Positions 2,818-50,842 of a stretch of 64,000 nt of DNA are shown here, one piece after another. Within the stretch, counting starts at the first letter, position 1, and each line of letters starts with the position of its first letter. This DNA is from a virus (lineage: Duplodnaviria > Caudoviricetes), in the IMG/VR virus record IMGVR_UViG_2879998633_000003, positions 50,741 to 114,740 of that record; one strand, given 5' to 3'. The position numbers were made by a program, and so were the translations under genes. The notes beneath the pieces were generated by a model that saw only the letters and a program-made list of their open reading frames with translations, made no database searches and was not told where the DNA came from.

Positions 2818-2981
2818 TTACATGTTCGCGATAATCGCGTCGCCAAACTCTGAACATTTCAGCAGTTTAGCGCCTTCCATCAGACGTTCAAAGTCATAGG
2901 TCACGGTCTTGGCGGCGATAGCGCCTTCCATGCCTTTGACGATCAGGTCTGCGGCTTCGAACCACTGCATGTGGCGCAGCA
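2818..2981 (-). pseudogene. icd: Displaced 3' end of isocitrate dehydrogenase, with att core TGCTGCGCCA (2972-2981)
   Basis: Translates to [53 protein letters not shown]; similarity stops at 2981. Confidence 0.93.
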
Positions 2982-3161
2982 ATACATATTTGAAAATTGG
3001 CTAACATGCTGAATTTAAATGCAAATAGAAGCATCAAAGAATAAGTTGCATACAAAAAATGCCATGTGGTAACTTATTGAAACTACTATAGTTGCTTTTC
3101 GTTTTGGGGAAGGAATATCCTGTTCTATCCCTCAATGAAAATACTTATTTAAGAGTTTTCT

Positions 3162-3746
3162 ATGGATTGGTTAACGTTTTTCAGTAAATTGATTGAACAC
3201 TGCACGTGGCCGGGTATTCTCCTTTTCATTGCGATCAGATATCGAAAAACTATCGTTGCACTAGCTAGCTCTTTGAGTTCTATTAAAGTTGGAGATTTTG
3301 TTGACGCCAACTTTAGTCGCGAGGCAGCAAAGATAGCTACCGTCAGTGAAGTTGAACTACCTCCGTCGGGAGTTGATTTTGAACAGCAGGAGGTTGAAAA
3401 TAAGTTGCTAGAACTCCCCCCAAGGTTAGCGATTTTAGACGCTTGGAAAATTGTTGAAAATTCAATTGATGAGTTCATAGTTAACAAAAATGTTGGCAGT
3501 ACCGCTATGTCAAGTGGATACCCCTCCAAGTTACCACCGATCAGAAAAATTTCAGAGCTACGCCGAGCTGAATACATAACCGCTCATCAAGCTGAGATGT
3601 TAGATAGTTTAAGAAAGTTAAGGAATGAAGTTGTACATGGCCCATATGGTTTAGAACCATCGCAAGTTGATGCAATTAACTATGTAAAATCCGCGCTTGC
3701 ATTCTCTAACTTATTTAAAATGAACATTAATCTCGACAATAAGTAG
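3162..3746 (+). CDS. N-terminal TM + HEPN-like protein, candidate defence effector
   Basis: Hydrophobic WPGILLFIAI; C-terminal LRKLRNEVVHG (Rx4H); AT-rich. Confidence 0.6.
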   Translation: MDWLTFFSKLIEHCTWPGILLFIAIRYRKTIVALASSLSSIKVGDFVDANFSREAAKIATVSEVELPPSGVDFEQQEVENKLLELPPRLAILDAWKIVENSIDEFIVNKNVGSTAMSSGYPSKLPPIRKISELRRAEYITAHQAEMLDSLRKLRNEVVHGPYGLEPSQVDAINYVKSALAFSNLFKMNINLDNK

Positions 3747-3956
3747 AAACGCTGCCATGCGGGGCAAATCCTCTCGTGCCGTCCAAAAATCCCTGAGAAA
3801 CCAGCCCTTTAAGACTGGTTTTTATTCTTTTTTTTTGTACGGGGAGAAATGGGGGAGAATCCCCCATCAATCGCAACCTTTCCGAGCTCTTTTCCGCTCA
3901 AAGAAATGTTCACTTCTCTGTCTTCTATACTTCCCGTATGACTACTGGAGGTAACC

Positions 3957-4271
3957 ATGTGCGGACGCTTTGCTGAATCACAGTCACGCGAAGAATACCT
4001 GGCTTATCTTGCCGAAAAAACTGAGCGGGATATCGCCTATGATCCAGAACTAATCGGCCGGTACAACGTGGCGCCAGGGACTAAAGTTTTGCTCCTGAGC
4101 GAACGCGATGAACAGATGCACCTCGATCCGGTCCACTGGGGTTACGCGCCAGGGTGGTGGGATAAACCACCGCTGATTAATGCACGAGTTGAGGCCGCTG
4201 CGGCCGATCAGGGGGTTGTCGATATTCATGACCGCCGGCCGCTTGTCCTGGCGCCGCCCGGGAATAGATGA
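3957..4271 (+). pseudogene. SRAP/YedK family peptidase, internally deleted copy
   Basis: MCGRF start; INARVE joined directly to AAAADQG...IHDRRP. Confidence 0.85.
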
Positions 4272-4498: not shown

Positions 4499-5476
4499 AT
4501 GAAACTTTACATAACTGGAAACGGATTTGATTTACACCATGGCCTTGATACCAGCTATTGTTCTTTTGCCTATTTTTTGCGATCTCACCAGAGGGATTCG
4601 TACAACAACTTAATTGAGTTTGTCGGTTTCACAGAACTCCCTGAAAATATTGACGAACTGAATGAGGATGAACATCGTCTGTGGTGTGAATTTGAAAGTA
4701 ATCTGGCAGGGTTAGATTCTCAGGCTGTACTGGATGCATTTACCGATTATCTCCCAAATCTGGGTGACCCAGATTTTCGTGATAGAGACTGGCATGCATT
4801 TGAAATTGAAATGCAGCGAATTCTTGAAAATTTAACTGATGGTATTTTCACCCAGTTTATGTCGTTTATTTCTCAAGTTAAATATCCAGAGTTTACCGCC
4901 GATAAAATACTGCAACTATGCAACAATGCCCTATTTATAAACTTTAATTACACCAGAACTATTGAATACTATTACGGAATAAAAAGAAACCAGATTCTTT
5001 ACATCCACGGCAATGCATCCTTACCTGGGGATAGGCTTATACTGGGGCATGGGATTGATCCTGAAAATTTCAAAGAGCCTCCTCAAGAGCCGCCCACGGA
5101 CGCAACGGATGAGGAGCTAGAACAGTGGTATCAACACATGTCTGATAATTACGATTTTGCATATGAAATAGGAAAACAGACTCTGAATCGGTACTTTACC
5201 CACTCATTCAAAAATACAGAGGAAGTGATAGATGCAAACCAATCATTTTTCTCTCAACTCAACGCGGTAAACGAGGTGATCATAATTGGACACTCTTTAT
5301 CAGCGGTCGACATGCCTTACTTCGCTGCCATTAAGCAACACGTCCAGCCTAATTCGACCTGGACAGCGACATGGTATCTTGAAAAAGAACGTGATCAACA
5401 CCTACATGCATTGCAGAGCATAGGCATTGAATATCCCCTAATTGTGCCAGTATGTAGCCTGCTGGTAAGGTCGTGA
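4499..5476 (+). CDS. AbiH-family abortive infection protein
   Basis: ITGNGFDLHHGLDTSY, FINFNYT, YIHG, ILGHG and IIGHSLSAVDMPYF motifs. Confidence 0.88.
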   Translation: MKLYITGNGFDLHHGLDTSYCSFAYFLRSHQRDSYNNLIEFVGFTELPENIDELNEDEHRLWCEFESNLAGLDSQAVLDAFTDYLPNLGDPDFRDRDWHAFEIEMQRILENLTDGIFTQFMSFISQVKYPEFTADKILQLCNNALFINFNYTRTIEYYYGIKRNQILYIHGNASLPGDRLILGHGIDPENFKEPPQEPPTDATDEELEQWYQHMSDNYDFAYEIGKQTLNRYFTHSFKNTEEVIDANQSFFSQLNAVNEVIIIGHSLSAVDMPYFAAIKQHVQPNSTWTATWYLEKERDQHLHALQSIGIEYPLIVPVCSLLVRS

Positions 5477-5665: not shown

Positions 5666-6342
5666 ATGTGTGGACGCTTTGCTCAATCACAAACCCGTGA
5701 AGAGTACCTGGCTTATTTGGCTGAAGAGGCCGAGCGGGATATCGCTTATGACCCCGAACCAATCGGCCGGTACAACGTGGCTCCGGGGACTAAAGTTTTG
5801 CTCCTGAGCGAACGCGACGAACAGTTGCACCTCGATCCGGTCCACTGGGGTTATGCGCCTGGGTGGTGGGATAAACCCCCATTGATTAATGCCCGGGTTG
5901 AGACTGCTGCCAGTAGCAGGATGTTTAAACCTCTGTGGCAACACGGTCGGGCGATCTGCTTTGCGGATGGCTGGTTTGAATGGAAAAAAGAAGGCGACAA
6001 GAAGCAGCCATACTTTATCCATCGTGCCGATGGCCAGCCGATATTCATGGCGGCAATCGGGAGTACACCATTTGAACGTGGAGACGAAGCCGAATGCTTT
6101 CTGATTGCCACCGCTGCGGCCGATCAGGGGTTGGTCGATATTCATGACCGCCGGCCGCTGGTTCTTCTGACGCCGGAAGCAGCTCGCGAATAGATGAGCC
6201 AGGCTCCAGGATGTCGCAGGCAGTTGAGATTGCCGGAGATGGTGCAGTGTCCACCGACCATTTCACATGGCACCCCGTTTCCCGCGCGGTGGGTAATGTG
6301 AAAAATCAGGGGCCGAAATTGATTGAGGCTATCAAAGCATAG
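5666..6342 (+). pseudogene. SRAP/YedK family peptidase, second copy; stop at 6191-6193, C-terminal remnant continues (WHPVSRAVGNVKNQG)
   Basis: MCGRF...ADGWFEW...IHDRRP; TAG where W is expected. Confidence 0.85.
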
Positions 6343-6553
6343 CTTATAAAACGTCCGAAATATGCTGTGAGTTCAACATCTCTTGCACTACTCCATGGAA
6401 AACAGATCAAACTAAATAGCCATGCAGATATGCTGGAGTCATGAGGGACGTTTCTCAGGATTTGGTCCGAAGCAGTTGCCAGGAACGCCCCACGCTGCAA
6501 AAGCGCGCTAAGGTCCTTTCAAGGGAGGCAGGAAAAAGATGTTATGGTAAATA

Positions 6554-6742
6554 TCAAACTTCAACAGCAATATTTAGGTCACTATCTGTAGTCACTCGAT
6601 CAATGATCCTGTGAACAATTCTATAGTGTTTGCCATTGTAGCTTTTCATATCACCTGCGGCGTAATTACGCTGTTCGGTTGTTACTACCGAGGGAAGCTT
6701 ATCGCCGTTCTTATCAAAGAATGCCCATTCATAAATATACAT
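6554..6742 (-). CDS. Small hypothetical protein (62 aa)
   Basis: ORF with AGGTGGGG RBS and AT-rich upstream region. Confidence 0.5.
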   Translation of the reverse strand: MYIYEWAFFDKNGDKLPSVVTTEQRNYAAGDMKSYNGKHYRIVHRIIDRVTTDSDLNIAVEV

Positions 6743-7261
6743 AAAACCCCACCTAAGTCATTGTTATTTATATACATCACACCATATTTTTGTTACATCT
6801 ATTTTGATGCAAATTTATGAACGGTTCGCTGCTGGGTTGTTAAGTTTAATTTGGCAGAGTGTGCCTGCAGCTACTATTTTGACATCCGCTCTACGCTCAT
6901 AGCGGACTTCGACCATTTACTATGGAGAACGTGGTCTTTAGTGAATGCTAACCTGTTGCAGTTAGGTTCATTGCGTCTGCCTTACGCCTTCACCTTTAAC
7001 AACGGAGCCTGTTTTCAAGACATCATAACATGATGTGCACCAATTTCCGCATCTTTCGTGTGGTTTGTTGTATCTGTATAACCTGCGAAAACATAGATTC
7101 GAACAAGTTAAAGCCCCATCAGCCCTTCGCAGGGTTGCTTGTTTCAAGCATCCGAGGAACTAATACGCTTTACCCTTCCACGCCCCCTCCCGCAAGGTGG
7201 ATGTTTTCCGTTTCCTGATACAAACTCGTTATGCTTGAACTGCCAAACACTTTAAGCACTG

Positions 7262-7289
7262 TTGACATGTCAATACTAACGCGTATACT
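7262..7289 (+). promoter_or_regulatory. Sigma70 promoter TTGACA-N16-TATACT; the -35 lies in the perfect palindrome TTGACATGTCAA
   Basis: Direct reading. Confidence 0.7.
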
Positions 7290-7526
7290 TTAGGCACGCT
7301 CTTAATTTCAGAGCCATTCTGAGAAAAGCGTTGGGACTATTTACATCCAATCTTCTCAGGAGCTTAAGCAGCGCCAATGTGTCGTGGGGTGCCGGGTTCT
7401 GCCCATTGACCGACGTGGCTTATAGTTAGGAACTCGATGCTAATATTTTGTCGTATCTGGGGATATTTGTCACACTCCGTGACAGTATGTCCAGATTCAT
7501 CGCATCGTTTATATTAGAGGAAACCC

Positions 7527-8432
7527 ATGTCGGATCAATCGATTGTTGTATCAGAAATCCTACCTTCGCTTCTTACTGAACACTCTCCCGAGCTTGGTGC
7601 ACGTCTAAAACAGCGTATTCAGTCTGAATTTGCTGCTCGCAGATTACCTGAGTTTGATCCTCAGAAGGAAGGTTGTCGGAAGTTTGCCGTCTATCTCGAA
7701 AGATTTCATGGCGATATAGCCCGGGTTGTTCGCGTACCTGACGAAAGCGATGTTCGTATCTACAAACAGATGCATTCACATTCTCTTAATACCCAACATA
7801 CTCCACATCCAGTAAATCAGAATGTCATTGTCCGCAATAATGTATGGCAGGCATTCCTTAATCCGGATTCTTCAAGAAAACGTTTTTTTAACAAAAAGAC
7901 AAAAGAGATTATCCATTTTATTCCTTCTCTGGATACTGCCGAGGAAGCTGAGGTTTCTGGCAACCCGCAAGGATTCATTGAAATCATCCCTATTTCAGGA
8001 ACAGAGCAGCTTAGCTGGATGCGAGCATTTTTAGCTGGTGCTCCTCTCGGTGATACTGAGAAAGAAGTTATTTCGTCACAAATTCAGGATAAGTATTCAA
8101 GTGCACTGAATGCTACTTTCACAAAATCACTTGGTATTCATGGTTCGCTGTGGCGCAATCACCGCCTTCCCCGTGTTATGCAATACATGCGCTCATGGGC
8201 CCAAAGAAATGAGGTACCATTCAATGAGTTATGCATTTCTGGTGTAAGTCATTCACTACAGGAGAAAGACGTAGTGTCTTCCCTGCCTGTTAGTGAGCAA
8301 TTTACGCCAACCGAAGCTCTACCGCCAAGACAACTAGCTCATAAGCTACTTGACCTCATGGCTGAAAATGATATTGCACAAATGGTTCTCCCTACAATGA
8401 TGAATACTCTTCTATTTAAATCTCGTCAGTGA
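7527..8432 (+). CDS. Hypothetical protein: OST-HTH/LOTUS-like N-terminus + UPF0158-like domain
   Basis: LGARLKQ...FDPQKEGCRKFAVYL resembles LOTUS; RFFNKKTKEI...IEIIPIS...WMRAF...W...R...W resembles UPF0158; GAGGA RBS. Confidence 0.55.
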   Translation: MSDQSIVVSEILPSLLTEHSPELGARLKQRIQSEFAARRLPEFDPQKEGCRKFAVYLERFHGDIARVVRVPDESDVRIYKQMHSHSLNTQHTPHPVNQNVIVRNNVWQAFLNPDSSRKRFFNKKTKEIIHFIPSLDTAEEAEVSGNPQGFIEIIPISGTEQLSWMRAFLAGAPLGDTEKEVISSQIQDKYSSALNATFTKSLGIHGSLWRNHRLPRVMQYMRSWAQRNEVPFNELCISGVSHSLQEKDVVSSLPVSEQFTPTEALPPRQLAHKLLDLMAENDIAQMVLPTMMNTLLFKSRQ

Positions 8433-8449
8433 CTAGATGAGATTTAAAT

Positions 8450-9328
8450 ATGAATACGATATTTGTTATCGGAATGTTTAAATCTCAGGCAAAACGTTTT
8501 TCTGCTGAATGTAGCCGGAGGGGGACTCGCTGTCGTCAGGTTTTAGCTGACGTTGGAAAACAAGGGGATTTTGTGCTGGTTCCTACCCCCCATGATGCTG
8601 TGCGTTCTTTCCAGGACTGGCTGGATAGTGAAGATGATGAAGAGTACGACAATCTCCACATTATCTTATTACCTTATTGTAAAATTACTCCCGAGATGGA
8701 GATTGAGCTTGAGATAGCAGTTGAGTTGGGTGCAAAACTCATCAAGCCAGAGGCCGGGGTTGACGGATGGCCTGCATCGCTATCTCGTAAGAACAAAGCA
8801 GACACAACCTTTTTAAACACGTTTTTCGGTAAAGTAACCGGCTTGCTGCCTTTAGTATCAGAGCCAGAAGTAAGTATTTCTGCCTATTACAAACAGCTAT
8901 CTTTTGAAAATCCACGTTTAGTTTTCTCTCCCCACGTTTATGCCAATTGTGATGGAATAGCATCACACCGGAAAAGTTTTATGAAGTTTGCTGCTGACTG
9001 CTTAGTAGAGCTGTTGTCGCAGCCCCCAGGATGTAGAGTCGACGCCTACTTCCGCGGAAAGGGGATTGATCATGCGCAAACTGGTGGAATATCAACTCAT
9101 CTAGAAGTTGTCAGCGAAGACTCAAATGTTACACGTGTAAAATATAGCGCTGAAACACACCTTAAAAAAGGTGATAACACAACCAGCACTGCAGCTGTTC
9201 GTATCTATTATCATTTTATCCATCATGATGATGTTAGCTATGTAATTGTTATGTATGCTGGCCCTCATCCTGAGGATGAGGTTCATTGGCAACTACAACT
9301 TCCATCCAGATCAACAGAAATGGCGTAG
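8450..9328 (+). CDS. Hypothetical protein with C-terminal RelE-like nuclease motif
   Basis: HLKKG...VRIYYHF...VIVMYAGPHP; 17 bp after the previous gene. Confidence 0.5.
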   Translation: MNTIFVIGMFKSQAKRFSAECSRRGTRCRQVLADVGKQGDFVLVPTPHDAVRSFQDWLDSEDDEEYDNLHIILLPYCKITPEMEIELEIAVELGAKLIKPEAGVDGWPASLSRKNKADTTFLNTFFGKVTGLLPLVSEPEVSISAYYKQLSFENPRLVFSPHVYANCDGIASHRKSFMKFAADCLVELLSQPPGCRVDAYFRGKGIDHAQTGGISTHLEVVSEDSNVTRVKYSAETHLKKGDNTTSTAAVRIYYHFIHHDDVSYVIVMYAGPHPEDEVHWQLQLPSRSTEMA

Positions 9329-9404
9329 GTTCCCAATTAGTGATCAGTCGGCTCTTCACTCTAATCGGAATATAGAAGCATCGCCACTACTGTTAATGGG
9401 CGAA

Positions 9405-49467: not shown

Positions 49468-50842
49468 GGCTAACCCCCTGCATGCTGCTGACCAGCCCGC
49501 TGGCAATAGTTATGATTTCGGTACTGGGCGTACGCTCAAGCCACAGCTGATTAATGTGTGCCTTCAGCTTATTTTGCTGAGACTCGTTAAGATGATTCAC
49601 GCCTTCGACTCGCTCAAACACCAGGCCTACTTCCAGTGGCCATATCCGGTTTTCGGGTAAGGCCTCTTTGGCAACGGAGAGAGCTTCACGGACATGAGTG
49701 CGGATCAGCCTGCTGTTGAACCAGCTCGCTTGATCCAGTCTACCGACAATATCGATGAACTCAGTTACCGGGCATGTGTCGACAAACTCTGCATACACCG
49801 AGTTCATGCGTTCTATGGTTTCTTCACGTGCAATTGTGGATCCGAGACCAACACCGTTAAGCCAGCCCACCAGCGCTTGTTTCGCAGTTTGTTTGATGAT
49901 CAGGGATTGAGCTGTGGCGATCACTTCTGAGTTAACCGGCGTAAACTCCGGTTTATCCACTGAATCAGCCGCCCAGGTATGACCGAATTTCGACTCGGCG
50001 AAGGTGTACTCGGCTTTATCGCCAAAAGCAGCAACCACGCATGCCCAGGATCGTATGCCGCTTTTCGCAAGGATTTCGTTCTGAAGGAGCGGTATTTCAG
50101 TTTCGGCTTGCTCTGTCTGGGGCAGTTCCATTACTGGACCTGTTGCCTGTTTACCCACGACGTACTGGGCCAGGGCCATACTCGCGCGCCCCTTCGCTTC
50201 AAGAGCCACACGATCGATATAGCTAAAGCGCTCACCTCGCCAGGACTTATCAAATACAACAATCGCCCCGGCAAAGAAGGCGCTGGTCGGCTTCTGCTTA
50301 TCGTCCGCCGGCTTAAACCAGGTAGGCAGATCGAAACCGATGCGACCGCGAATAAAACAGACATGATCCGCATCTTCTGGCCACCATGTCTCACTCGTCG
50401 CTGACTTCACCAGAAAGACATAACGACCACCCTTTTCACGCTGAGCGGATGCATAACTCATGATGTGGGTCATGCCTGTGATCGCCTGCTTTTCGTGATA
50501 CTGAGAACGGCTATACGGCGGATTTCCAAATGCCGCGCCGCCGAGTTCTATCAGTCGCCCCGCCCAGTCCTGCGTCAGGGCATTGTCTTCTGCTGAGTAC
50601 CACGCAGGGCATTTTGCGTTGCTTTCGTCTGCAAAGAGGTCCAGCACCAGCGGGCCATACATAGCGTTAACCCCCCAGAACAACAGATCGGGCGTTCTCC
50701 ACTGGTCGCCCACCTCCTTGAGATAGTGGGCAGGTGCAGCACGTAATGCATCCAGAGCATCACAGTACTGGCTTCTGGTGATTGGGAGTTCGGCCTCATC
50801 CACCAGCATTTCCCCTTCGCTGGTCGTGTTCAGTCGATGCAC
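49460..50842 (-). CDS. Phage N6-adenine methyltransferase (Dam-like) with C-terminal extension
   Basis: WRTP, LDLFA, NPPYS, GRIGF. Confidence 0.9.
   Translation of the reverse strand: MHRLNTTSEGEMLVDEAELPITRSQYCDALDALRAAPAHYLKEVGDQWRTPDLLFWGVNAMYGPLVLDLFADESNAKCPAWYSAEDNALTQDWAGRLIELGGAAFGNPPYSRSQYHEKQAITGMTHIMSYASAQREKGGRYVFLVKSATSETWWPEDADHVCFIRGRIGFDLPTWFKPADDKQKPTSAFFAGAIVVFDKSWRGERFSYIDRVALEAKGRASMALAQYVVGKQATGPVMELPQTEQAETEIPLLQNEILAKSGIRSWACVVAAFGDKAEYTFAESKFGHTWAADSVDKPEFTPVNSEVIATAQSLIIKQTAKQALVGWLNGVGLGSTIAREETIERMNSVYAEFVDTCPVTEFIDIVGRLDQASWFNSRLIRTHVREALSVAKEALPENRIWPLEVGLVFERVEGVNHLNESQQNKLKAHINQLWLERTPSTEIITIASGLVSSMQGVSHA

Follow-up and report, generated by a model that had tools for sequence, protein, structure and literature searches.

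A conserved structured leader RNA precedes LOTUS-like and RelE-like proteins in a rare prophage-borne operon

An operon with a structured leader

The window analysed here is a 64,000-nucleotide (nt) stretch (positions 50,741 to 114,740) of the virus record IMGVR_UViG_2879998633_000003 in IMG/VR, which is 114,740 bases long. Between the lambda-type integrase and the tail-fibre genes of this element lies an operon that comprises a structured leader and two genes, gene 1 (7527–8432, 301 amino acids (aa)) and gene 2 (8450–9328, 292 aa), which both lie on the plus strand and are separated by 17 nt. The leader is a conserved structured RNA, gene 1 begins with a predicted LOTUS fold, and gene 2 ends in a domain that in its structural model resembles RelE-type toxins at the fold level. 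Leader and genes form a real, conserved and rare three-part module, in which new members of known folds occur in a new combination.

The operon is preceded by a sigma-70-like promoter on the plus strand (−35 TTGACA at 7262–7267, a 16-nt spacer and −10 TATACT at 7284–7289), which matches the consensus at 11 of 12 positions. No other of the 7 promoter-like sites in 6200–9600 scores as well, and their number is not above chance (7.2 are expected from shuffles). In a MAFFT alignment inspected by eye its −10 aligns with −10-like hexamers of related loci, which stand at a similar distance from the first stem-loop. A perfect 12-base-pair (bp) palindrome (7262–7273) covers the −35. Perfect palindromes of this length number 19 in the window compared with 14.65 in shuffles, and none lies at the −35 among homologous loci. 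Since palindromes of this kind occur at chance frequency and this one lacks conservation, we give it no weight and reject it as an operator; the upstream palindromes of other loci are RNA hairpins of the leader. A Shine–Dalgarno-like AGAGG (7516–7520, plus strand) is read from the sequence 6 nt ahead of the gene 1 ATG. A first-pass annotation, made from the sequence alone, had placed the promoter, the palindrome, the leader hairpins and the tightly spaced genes at the coordinates at which we find them.

The predicted transcript opens with a stem-loop that has a 5-bp stem (7298–7314, plus strand; read from the sequence). At this position the related loci carry a hairpin of different sequence in an alignment inspected by eye. 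Next comes hairpin P0 (7319–7359, plus strand; −12.7 kcal/mol, z −2.18, 4/200 shuffles as stable), the basal GAGA/UCUC-type stem of which recurs among relatives, by eye only. The leader ends in a terminator-like hairpin, P3 (7435–7507, plus strand), with an apical ACUCC loop and a U-rich run behind it (7508–7515). P3 is built of three nested stems (7435–7440 with 7502–7507, 7455–7460 with 7491–7496 and 7468–7473 with 7479–7484) and is far more stable than shuffled sequence (−26.7 kcal/mol, z −3.80, 0/200 shuffles as stable). Taken whole, the 235-nt leader has a stability that is not above that of shuffles (z −1.26, 23/200). Both long hairpins, including the three nested stems of P3, are exactly as the earlier annotation had described them.

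P3 is kept in place and form across related loci: 20 loci together yield 8 consensus pairs, compensatory change is seen in 7 of these, and the apical loop is often ACUCY. In many relatives it reads as a GC-rich stem followed by a U-run, with the look of an intrinsic terminator (for example in loci L001, L002, L005, L011, L016, L017 and L022). The P3 of the window is longer than that of its relatives and is followed by UUUAUAUU. Tandem Repeats Finder detected no array in 7100–7526; the only two arrays that it reported are trivial and lie inside gene 2.

A conserved RNA core with covarying helices

Between P0 and P3 lies the conserved core of the leader (7362–7436, plus strand). It contains helix P1 (7362–7369 with 7418–7426), helix P1b (7371–7373 with 7414–7416), helix P2 (7382–7388 with 7402–7409), a probable pseudoknot and conserved unpaired junctions. 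Every locus for which there is upstream DNA has the core ahead of gene 1, and its nucleotide sequence is conserved where the proteins share just 30–40% identity. The upstream regions of five metagenomic loci, for example, hold a stretch that is near-identical to 7360–7436 of the window, whereas their gene 1 proteins are only about 37% identical. A covariance model of the element, R1, matches the window at 7349–7459 with 79.3 bits.

Across 24 distinct sequences RNAalifold calls two helices, with compensatory change in 11 of 16 pairs. In a model-fitted alignment of 25 distinct leaders, 92.0% of P1/P2 cells are paired compared with 71.2% after shuffling (0/500), although this alignment was fitted to the structure, which favours pairing. 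Cells changed on both sides number 81 against 23.9 in shuffles (0/500), and covariation scores 0.617 in the alignment and 0.220 in shuffles. When the 3′ partners are displaced by 1–3 columns, pairing falls to 26–42%. We consider the signal to be real because of these slid controls and the independent RNAalifold call, and regard the P1 and P2 helices as established. Covariation across homologous loci had been proposed as a check on the first-pass annotation, and its suggestion of a possible RNA component has become the strongest part of that annotation: the leader is conserved, covaries and is exclusive to the operon. A search of Rfam 15 with the window region 6200–9500 and the leaders of 9 related loci gave no match to the leader at E 1. 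The leader is thus a conserved structured RNA that constitutes a new motif with no Rfam match.

The loop of P2 probably forms a pseudoknot with the segment just 3′ of P1, judging from sequence complementarity (7393–7400 with 7429–7436; 8 pairs, of which 2 are G–U). A contiguous helix of 5–11 pairs can form between loop and tail in 25/25 sequences, and has at least 6 pairs in 22/25. In 13/25 it is better than 95% of loop shuffles. The helix occurs in many sequence variants around a GUUC/GAAC centre, among them GAGUUC/GAACUC, UGGUUC/GAACCA, CGGUUUC/GAAACCG, GGGUUU/AAACCC, GAGUC/GACUC and CAGGUC/GACCUG. Fisher combination over 17 types gives p 3.9e-9, which is overstated because the types are related. 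Loops pair better with their own tails (mean 7.44 bp) than with mismatched ones (6.35 bp). Of the 3′ pseudoknot strand of the window, 2 nt also belong to the outer stem of P3.

The RNA is confined to the operon

In 29 sources (282 kb) R1 has 27 matches; each locus has a single one, which always sits just upstream of gene 1. In the two sources with no match this upstream region is missing, and the seed sequences match by construction. An independent viral contig outside the model (L031) also matches (E 4.5e-17), 75 nt upstream of its gene 1 homologue. R1 matches exactly once, at the leader, in each of 5 whole genomes with the operon, and 150 other genomes of one class contain no match. No true match was found in 80 loci (600 kb) drawn from a loose DNA-pattern scan of genome contigs (at least 120 stretches), which yielded one partial match at E 0.58 and which is neither a fair sampling nor a proof of absence. 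Among the sources searched, the leader RNA is therefore exclusive to this operon.

Gene 1 begins with a LOTUS fold

Gene 1 has 115 relatives in a word-indexed search. An AlphaFold model built from 55 sequences has a mean pLDDT (the score predicted for the local distance difference test) of 84, with residues 83–97 and 240–261 disordered. We distinguish three parts: an N-terminal LOTUS/OST-HTH fold (aa 1–82, nt 7527–7772), a UPF0158-like middle domain (about aa 100–235, nt 7824–8231) and, after a low-confidence linker, a conserved C-terminal helical pair (aa 267–300, nt 8325–8426).

Residues 1–82 superpose on the LOTUS domain of TDRD5 with Z 9.1 (root-mean-square deviation (rmsd) 2.6, 76/81 aligned), and on those of TDRD7 (Z 8.0), MARF1 (7.4), Tejas (7.2) and Oskar (6.8). 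DNA-binding winged helix-turn-helix (wHTH) regulators are also among the structural matches. In Foldseek, TDRD5 and TDRD7 LOTUS domains appear with probability 0.87–0.98, at E above 0.1. Among the 55 aligned sequences (the window protein and 54 relatives), 12 match OST-HTH (PF12872) and 17 match UPF0158 (PF03682) at E 0.01, with best values of 5.7e-08 and 4.3e-07, respectively; the window protein matches neither family. At the level of the modelled fold, gene 1 thus begins with a LOTUS wHTH domain, as had been proposed from motifs, and the accompanying UPF0158-like label comes from some of the relatives rather than from the window protein itself. The middle domain and the C-terminal pair were missed by the fold searches because LOTUS matches filled the lists. 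To our knowledge, UPF0158 is a family without a known function.

Gene 2 ends in a RelE-like domain

At E 0.001 an exhaustive search with gene 2 gave 119 representative relatives, of which 69 also pass 1e-10 and 43 pass 1e-30. Viral and genome collections that were searched by locus with gene 2 alone yielded no relatives. The AlphaFold2 model (63 sequences) has a pLDDT of 92.9 and consists of a predicted Rossmann/flavodoxin-like N-terminal domain (aa 1–138, nt 8450–8863) and a predicted RelE/YafQ/YoeB-like C-terminal domain (aa 152–277, nt 8903–9280).

Of the 50 structural matches listed, 43 cover residues 1–139; they represent generic Rossmann/flavodoxin-like folds and reach Z 8.1 at most. No CARF domain is among the top matches listed for residues 1–138, and the ESM Atlas offered no lead for this domain (best score 0.78, unnamed clusters). 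Among the matches listed, all 7 that cover residues 152–277 are toxins of the RelE superfamily, comprising YafQ, archaeal and E. coli RelE, two YoeB proteins and an H. pylori toxin, with 81–88 residues aligned of chains that are 84–95 long. The best of them is 4q2u_B (Z 7.8, rmsd 3.1, 86/90 aligned), followed by 3bpq_D (7.3), 7v6w_F (7.3), 2a6q_E (7.2), 4ls4_A (6.6), 2kc8 (6.5) and 1wmi_C (6.5). These Z values are all below 8, where a common arrangement can explain a match, and so they provide support at the fold level and not proof of homology. In the model, gene 2 therefore ends in a compact α/β domain that resembles the RelE/ParE (BECR) fold, and the RelE-like call made from motifs stands at this level.

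The motif behind that call, HLK.G...R.YY...GPHP, is the most conserved part of the gene 2 family. H237, G241, R251, Y253, G271 and H273 are invariant in 63 sequences, at least 90% of which also have K239, D242, T244, A249 and P274. In the model the conserved His, Lys, Arg, Tyr and His residues fall in the sheet region of the RelE-like domain, and they may correspond to catalytic residues of RelE, YoeB or YafQ. With PADLOC, gene 2 gives only weak matches, to two HEC-07 models (E 0.0015 and 0.0036), and the alignment is limited to their C-terminal end (the last 30–75 model residues). Weak HEC-07 matches recur in 7/63 and 3/63 of the relatives, at the RelE-like end.

The gene pair is constant and its effector exchangeable

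Loci found with gene 2 have a gene 1 homologue directly upstream in 20/21 cases, and the contig of the 21st begins inside gene 2; three of the 21 duplicate others. Gene 1 located 7 further loci, of which 5 have a full gene 2 homologue, one is on a contig that ends after gene 1, and one, L029, has a different partner. The pair thus occurs together wherever this can be checked (20/21 and 5/7 loci with the full pair); a failure of the genes to co-occur elsewhere had been named beforehand as a possible refutation of the first-pass annotation.

The L029 partner (3325–4029, 234 aa) is homologous to the gene 2 N-terminal domain over its first 130 residues (hhalign 98.5%, E 3.7e-15), whereas its last approximately 100 residues are unrelated to gene 2 and belong to no Pfam family. 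L029 retains the leader RNA and the gene 1 homologue. This suggests that the N-terminal domain is constant and that the RelE-like domain behaves as an exchangeable effector.

A sister family of about 40 representatives (240–260 aa) matches just the RelE-like half of gene 2. In the 6 loci of this family with enough sequence, from Myxococcota and similar metagenome-assembled genomes, each member is preceded by a protein of about 275–330 aa, and in L157 this protein and gene 1 are homologous along 250 columns (hhalign 97.6%, E 3.8e-12). These loci (L157–L163) possess a conserved leader of their own, about 300 nt upstream of position 2650 in each, with a promoter, hairpins, a GACGACGU stretch that is shared and, ahead of the ribosome-binding site, a clear terminator. 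This leader escapes detection by R1, and we put it forward as a candidate second RNA motif.

Defence genes are found beside the pair in unrelated genomes: a Ppl-like ATPase in L002 (E 1.6e-29), PDC-S02/Mrr in L163 (3.2e-86), PDC-M28C in L157 (4.2e-30) and a DUF4062 protein in L026. AbiH is the corresponding neighbour in the window, where the surroundings had been described as a defence-rich island.

The metagenomic contig L017 contains, about 200 nt downstream of the pair, a match to the Rfam family sRNA-Xcc1 at 2932–3018 (68.9 bits against a gathering score of 53). sRNA-Xcc1 is associated with integron cassettes, and the pair in L017 may lie within a cassette array.

The prophage island around the operon

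Upstream of the operon, the lambda-type integrase (1573–2700) is adjoined by a DUF4145/HEPN-like open reading frame (ORF) of 194 aa (3162–3746). This ORF has weak matches to DUF4145 (E 9e-06) and RiboL-PSP-HEPN (E 7e-04) and none in PADLOC, and may be another small defence or toxin gene. AbiH (4499–5476, E 3.1e-23) is flanked by two ORFs for SRAP (SOS-response-associated peptidase): the first (3957–4271) is a 104-aa N-terminal piece, and the second (5666–6193, 175 aa) does not reach the end of the Pfam model. AbiH appears to lie beside or within a split or duplicated SRAP gene.

Downstream, a UmuDC-like pair on the minus strand (9405–11106; two overlapping ORFs of 441 aa, UmuC-like, and 144 aa, UmuD-like, named from their translations) converges on gene 2, 77 nt from its stop codon, and, as putative error-prone-polymerase cargo, shares the prophage island with the defence genes. 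Next to a 658-aa ORF with no Pfam match (12882–14858, plus strand) is a resolvase/invertase that has an HTH_7 domain (12225–12803, minus strand); the two sit just before the large tail genes and are arranged like an invertible tail-fibre (host-range) switch. A 427-aa ORF (11–1294) just upstream of the integrase has a C-terminal Rv2179c-like 3′–5′ exoribonuclease domain (E 2e-69).

Phage, plasmid and E. coli collections gave no match to the 2.2-kb locus or to gene 2, a result that is not evidence of rarity.

A model for the module and its alternatives

The reading that we favour, at roughly even confidence, is that of a RelE-type toxin module for phage defence in which the LOTUS partner binds its own leader and provides feedback at the RNA level. 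One promoter would drive a structured leader of about 210–230 nt, made up of the 5′ stem-loop, P0, the core of P1, P2 and pseudoknot, and the terminator-like P3, which sits just before the ribosome-binding site of two co-translated genes. Gene 2 would be the effector, a RelE-fold ribonuclease (RNase) behind a Rossmann-like domain that stops translation by cutting mRNA, and gene 1 would be the partner that holds it inactive. The N-terminal LOTUS domain of gene 1 would bind the leader core, and this binding would set transcriptional read-through at P3 into both genes, so that RNA-level feedback would replace the DNA-operator feedback of classical type II systems. A phage that disturbs this balance would free the nuclease, and the infected cell would be shut down. 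No conserved RNA other than the partner's own leader lies in reach, and in the simplest reading the LOTUS protein would bind the core, tune read-through in this way and also restrain the nuclease. What the analysis shows is the anatomy, the folds, a conserved and covarying RNA that is linked exclusively to the gene pair, and neighbouring defence genes; nuclease activity, neutralization by gene 1, contact between LOTUS and RNA, control of termination and phage defence are inferred.

Several results weigh against this reading. The window protein of gene 1 has no match in Pfam (E 1), NCBIfam or PADLOC, and Foldseek finds nothing for the model of either protein at E 0.001. Gene 2 of the window matches no Pfam or NCBIfam family at E 1, none of its relatives (0/63) matches a RelE/ParE-type Pfam family at E 0.1, profile searches of Protein Data Bank sequences returned nothing relevant, and the Z values of its RelE-like domain are modest, as described above. 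In the leader, RNAalifold gives no consensus pairs on a gappy alignment of the P0 region that includes the 5′ stem-loop, and these two elements consequently rest on inspection; the P3 of the window has no clean U-tract, and a consensus terminator scan made no call there. Pseudoknot pairing in a fixed register is weak (76.7% compared with 70.4% shuffled, 1/500; 71.9% at slide −1). In that alignment about 40% of rows are one column off, and a second covariance model left them unshifted; the count is diluted because the sequences were not re-registered, and we rely on the per-sequence analysis. Three of the 8 loci scanned for neighbours, the window included, have no recognisable defence gene. Finally, RNA libraries yielded only two low-depth contigs, 7465–7689 (P3 into gene 1) and 8450–8645, which may be DNA carry-over, and a single raw-read RNA run had zero reads on the locus.

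A bolder version of the model, which we hold only tentatively, is that a bacterial LOTUS domain has its natural RNA ligand in this leader and that the three parts act as one ribonucleoprotein immune switch. The pseudoknotted RNA would be made in excess by means of the terminator, and a LOTUS/UPF0158–RNA complex would license or restrain the RelE-type nuclease. Such a switch would possess a dedicated, non-repetitive structured RNA subunit unlike anything in toxin–antitoxin types I to VIII, retrons or CRISPR, a suggestion that we likewise put forward with reservations and as less probable than not. An account with a related role for the RNA, which we judge to be unlikely, has the terminated leader persist as a stable small RNA and stoichiometric third subunit, the terminator setting the ratio of RNA to protein. 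The particle of RNA and LOTUS protein would then keep the nuclease off or present its trigger, much as RNA works in type III systems and retrons. The order of RNA, terminator and effector genes does resemble that of type III loci, the RNA is more strongly conserved than the proteins, a leader is kept in the divergent sister family, and L029 has exchanged the effector domain but retains RNA, gene 1 and the gene 2 N-terminal domain. However, the leader has no tandem repeats, the RNA-library contigs give no sign of an abundant short transcript, and the nuclease fold is RelE-like and not ToxN-like.

The same leader could also be read as a riboswitch, the core of which would bind a small molecule, for example a nucleotide signal of infection or stress, and switch P3, with the genes as regulated cargo. 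Its layout is aptamer-like, with a pseudoknotted core and near-invariant unpaired junctions followed by a terminator-like hairpin before the ribosome-binding site. Sensor and expression platform are both in place (covarying P1 and P2; a conserved P3 that is U-tailed in many loci), and the 2-nt overlap between the 3′ strand of the pseudoknot and the outer stem of P3 would suit a switch. Metabolite riboswitches usually control several unrelated gene families, however, whereas this RNA was found only before one type of operon (28 loci; a single copy per genome in 5 whole genomes; 0 in 150 others), the first gene of which carries a predicted RNA-binding domain, as would befit a protein ligand. Because the RNA is exclusive to one operon and a LOTUS protein is present, we favour a protein ligand over a metabolite and regard a riboswitch as improbable. 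Much less probable still is an ordinary type II pair, in which gene 1 would repress promoter DNA, for example at the −35 palindrome, through its winged-helix LOTUS domain and the leader would be a stabilizing or attenuating 5′ untranslated region with no specific partner. The gene order and tight spacing are typical of such pairs, LOTUS is a wHTH fold with DNA-binding wHTH regulators among its structural matches, and a palindrome covers the −35; but such palindromes are as frequent as chance predicts and this one is not conserved, and a passive untranslated region would not keep unpaired nucleotides invariant and helices covarying at 30–40% protein identity. We give equally little credence, or slightly less, to the idea that gene 2 is not a toxin at all, its RelE-like domain being a non-catalytic or differently targeted BECR fold and the module serving prophage regulation rather than defence. 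The absence of sequence-level membership in a RelE/ParE family, the modest Z values and the prophage setting beside SRAP and UmuDC-like genes, which have to do with DNA damage and not with defence, speak for it. Against it stand the conserved His, Lys, Arg, Tyr and His residues in the sheet region of the domain, the defence genes that neighbour the pair in unrelated genomes, and the weak matches to the RelE-like end of the defence protein HEC-07.

Comparison with known systems

Among the known systems closest to the module are the type II pairs RelBE, YefM–YoeB and DinJ–YafQ. Chains of YafQ, YoeB and RelE can be superposed on the gene 2 C-terminal domain (Z 6.5–7.8), and the module shares with these pairs a two-gene operon with the partner gene first, carried on a mobile element. 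Classical type II antitoxins are small ribbon-helix-helix, Phd or helix-turn-helix proteins, whereas the partner here is a 301-aa LOTUS/UPF0158-like protein. The putative toxin has an extra Rossmann-like domain of 140 aa and no Pfam RelE/ParE match, and the operon possesses a dedicated conserved RNA and a terminator-like hairpin. In the available text of a Pfam-based survey of the RelE superfamily (PMC11980606), LOTUS, OST-HTH, UPF0158, Rossmann and flavodoxin do not occur. Literature searched on UPF0158, OST-HTH/LOTUS, HEC-07 and RelE/ParE, from which supplementary tables fell outside the search, holds no description of this pair or of its RNA. The first-pass annotation had recognized no named system, and neither protein indeed has a match in PADLOC, Pfam or NCBIfam other than the weak one at the RelE-like end of HEC-07.

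Two further systems share part of this architecture. Cami1 is a CRISPR-associated CARF–RelE ribonuclease that is activated by cyclic oligoadenylate, and it fuses a Rossmann-type sensor domain to a RelE-type nuclease in antiviral defence, as gene 2 may do. It differs in its association with CRISPR and its mode of activation; no CARF domain is among the top matches listed for residues 1–138 of gene 2. In the type III system ToxIN, an RNA element, a terminator and a toxin gene form one transcription unit; the present operon differs in having no tandem repeats, an extra protein and a RelE-like rather than a ToxN-like fold.

HEC-07 is a Hma-embedded candidate that was tested for phage defence, and is described in the available text as a multidomain protein with a RelE-like RNase end and a conserved histidine (10.1101/2024.01.29.577857). 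According to the same text it combines AdoMetDC-like, thioredoxin-like and RelE-like domains in a single protein (10.1101/2024.01.29.577857). It is the only PADLOC family that gene 2 and its relatives match, weakly (E about 1e-3). HEC-07 is a single protein (models of 526–553 residues) compared with 292 aa for gene 2, which falls outside the family, and the part of its description that is available gives it no LOTUS partner and no RNA.

RNA binding by OST-HTH/LOTUS domains was predicted in 2010, and the available text of that study states that bacterial LOTUS domains are almost always fused to a DUF88/LK-nuclease, for which they are predicted to recruit RNA substrates (PMC2848206). The same text reports no conserved gene-neighbourhood link of OST-HTH proteins to other known RNA-processing systems (PMC2848206). 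Our module likewise teams a LOTUS domain with a putative RNase, but does so through separate genes with a dedicated RNA and not through a fused chain. As far as the literature was searched, we found no defined natural bacterial RNA partner of LOTUS, and the operon, if we read it correctly, would offer a specific candidate RNA–protein pair for bacterial LOTUS domains. It would also define a new class of structured RNA, with two covarying helices, a probable pseudoknot and invariant junctions, absent from Rfam and tied to a single operon, of which at least one relative has exchanged the effector domain and retained the rest. To the multidomain RelE-type toxins exemplified by HEC-07 and Cami1, the module would then add a version that is controlled at the RNA level and is carried by a prophage beside AbiH.

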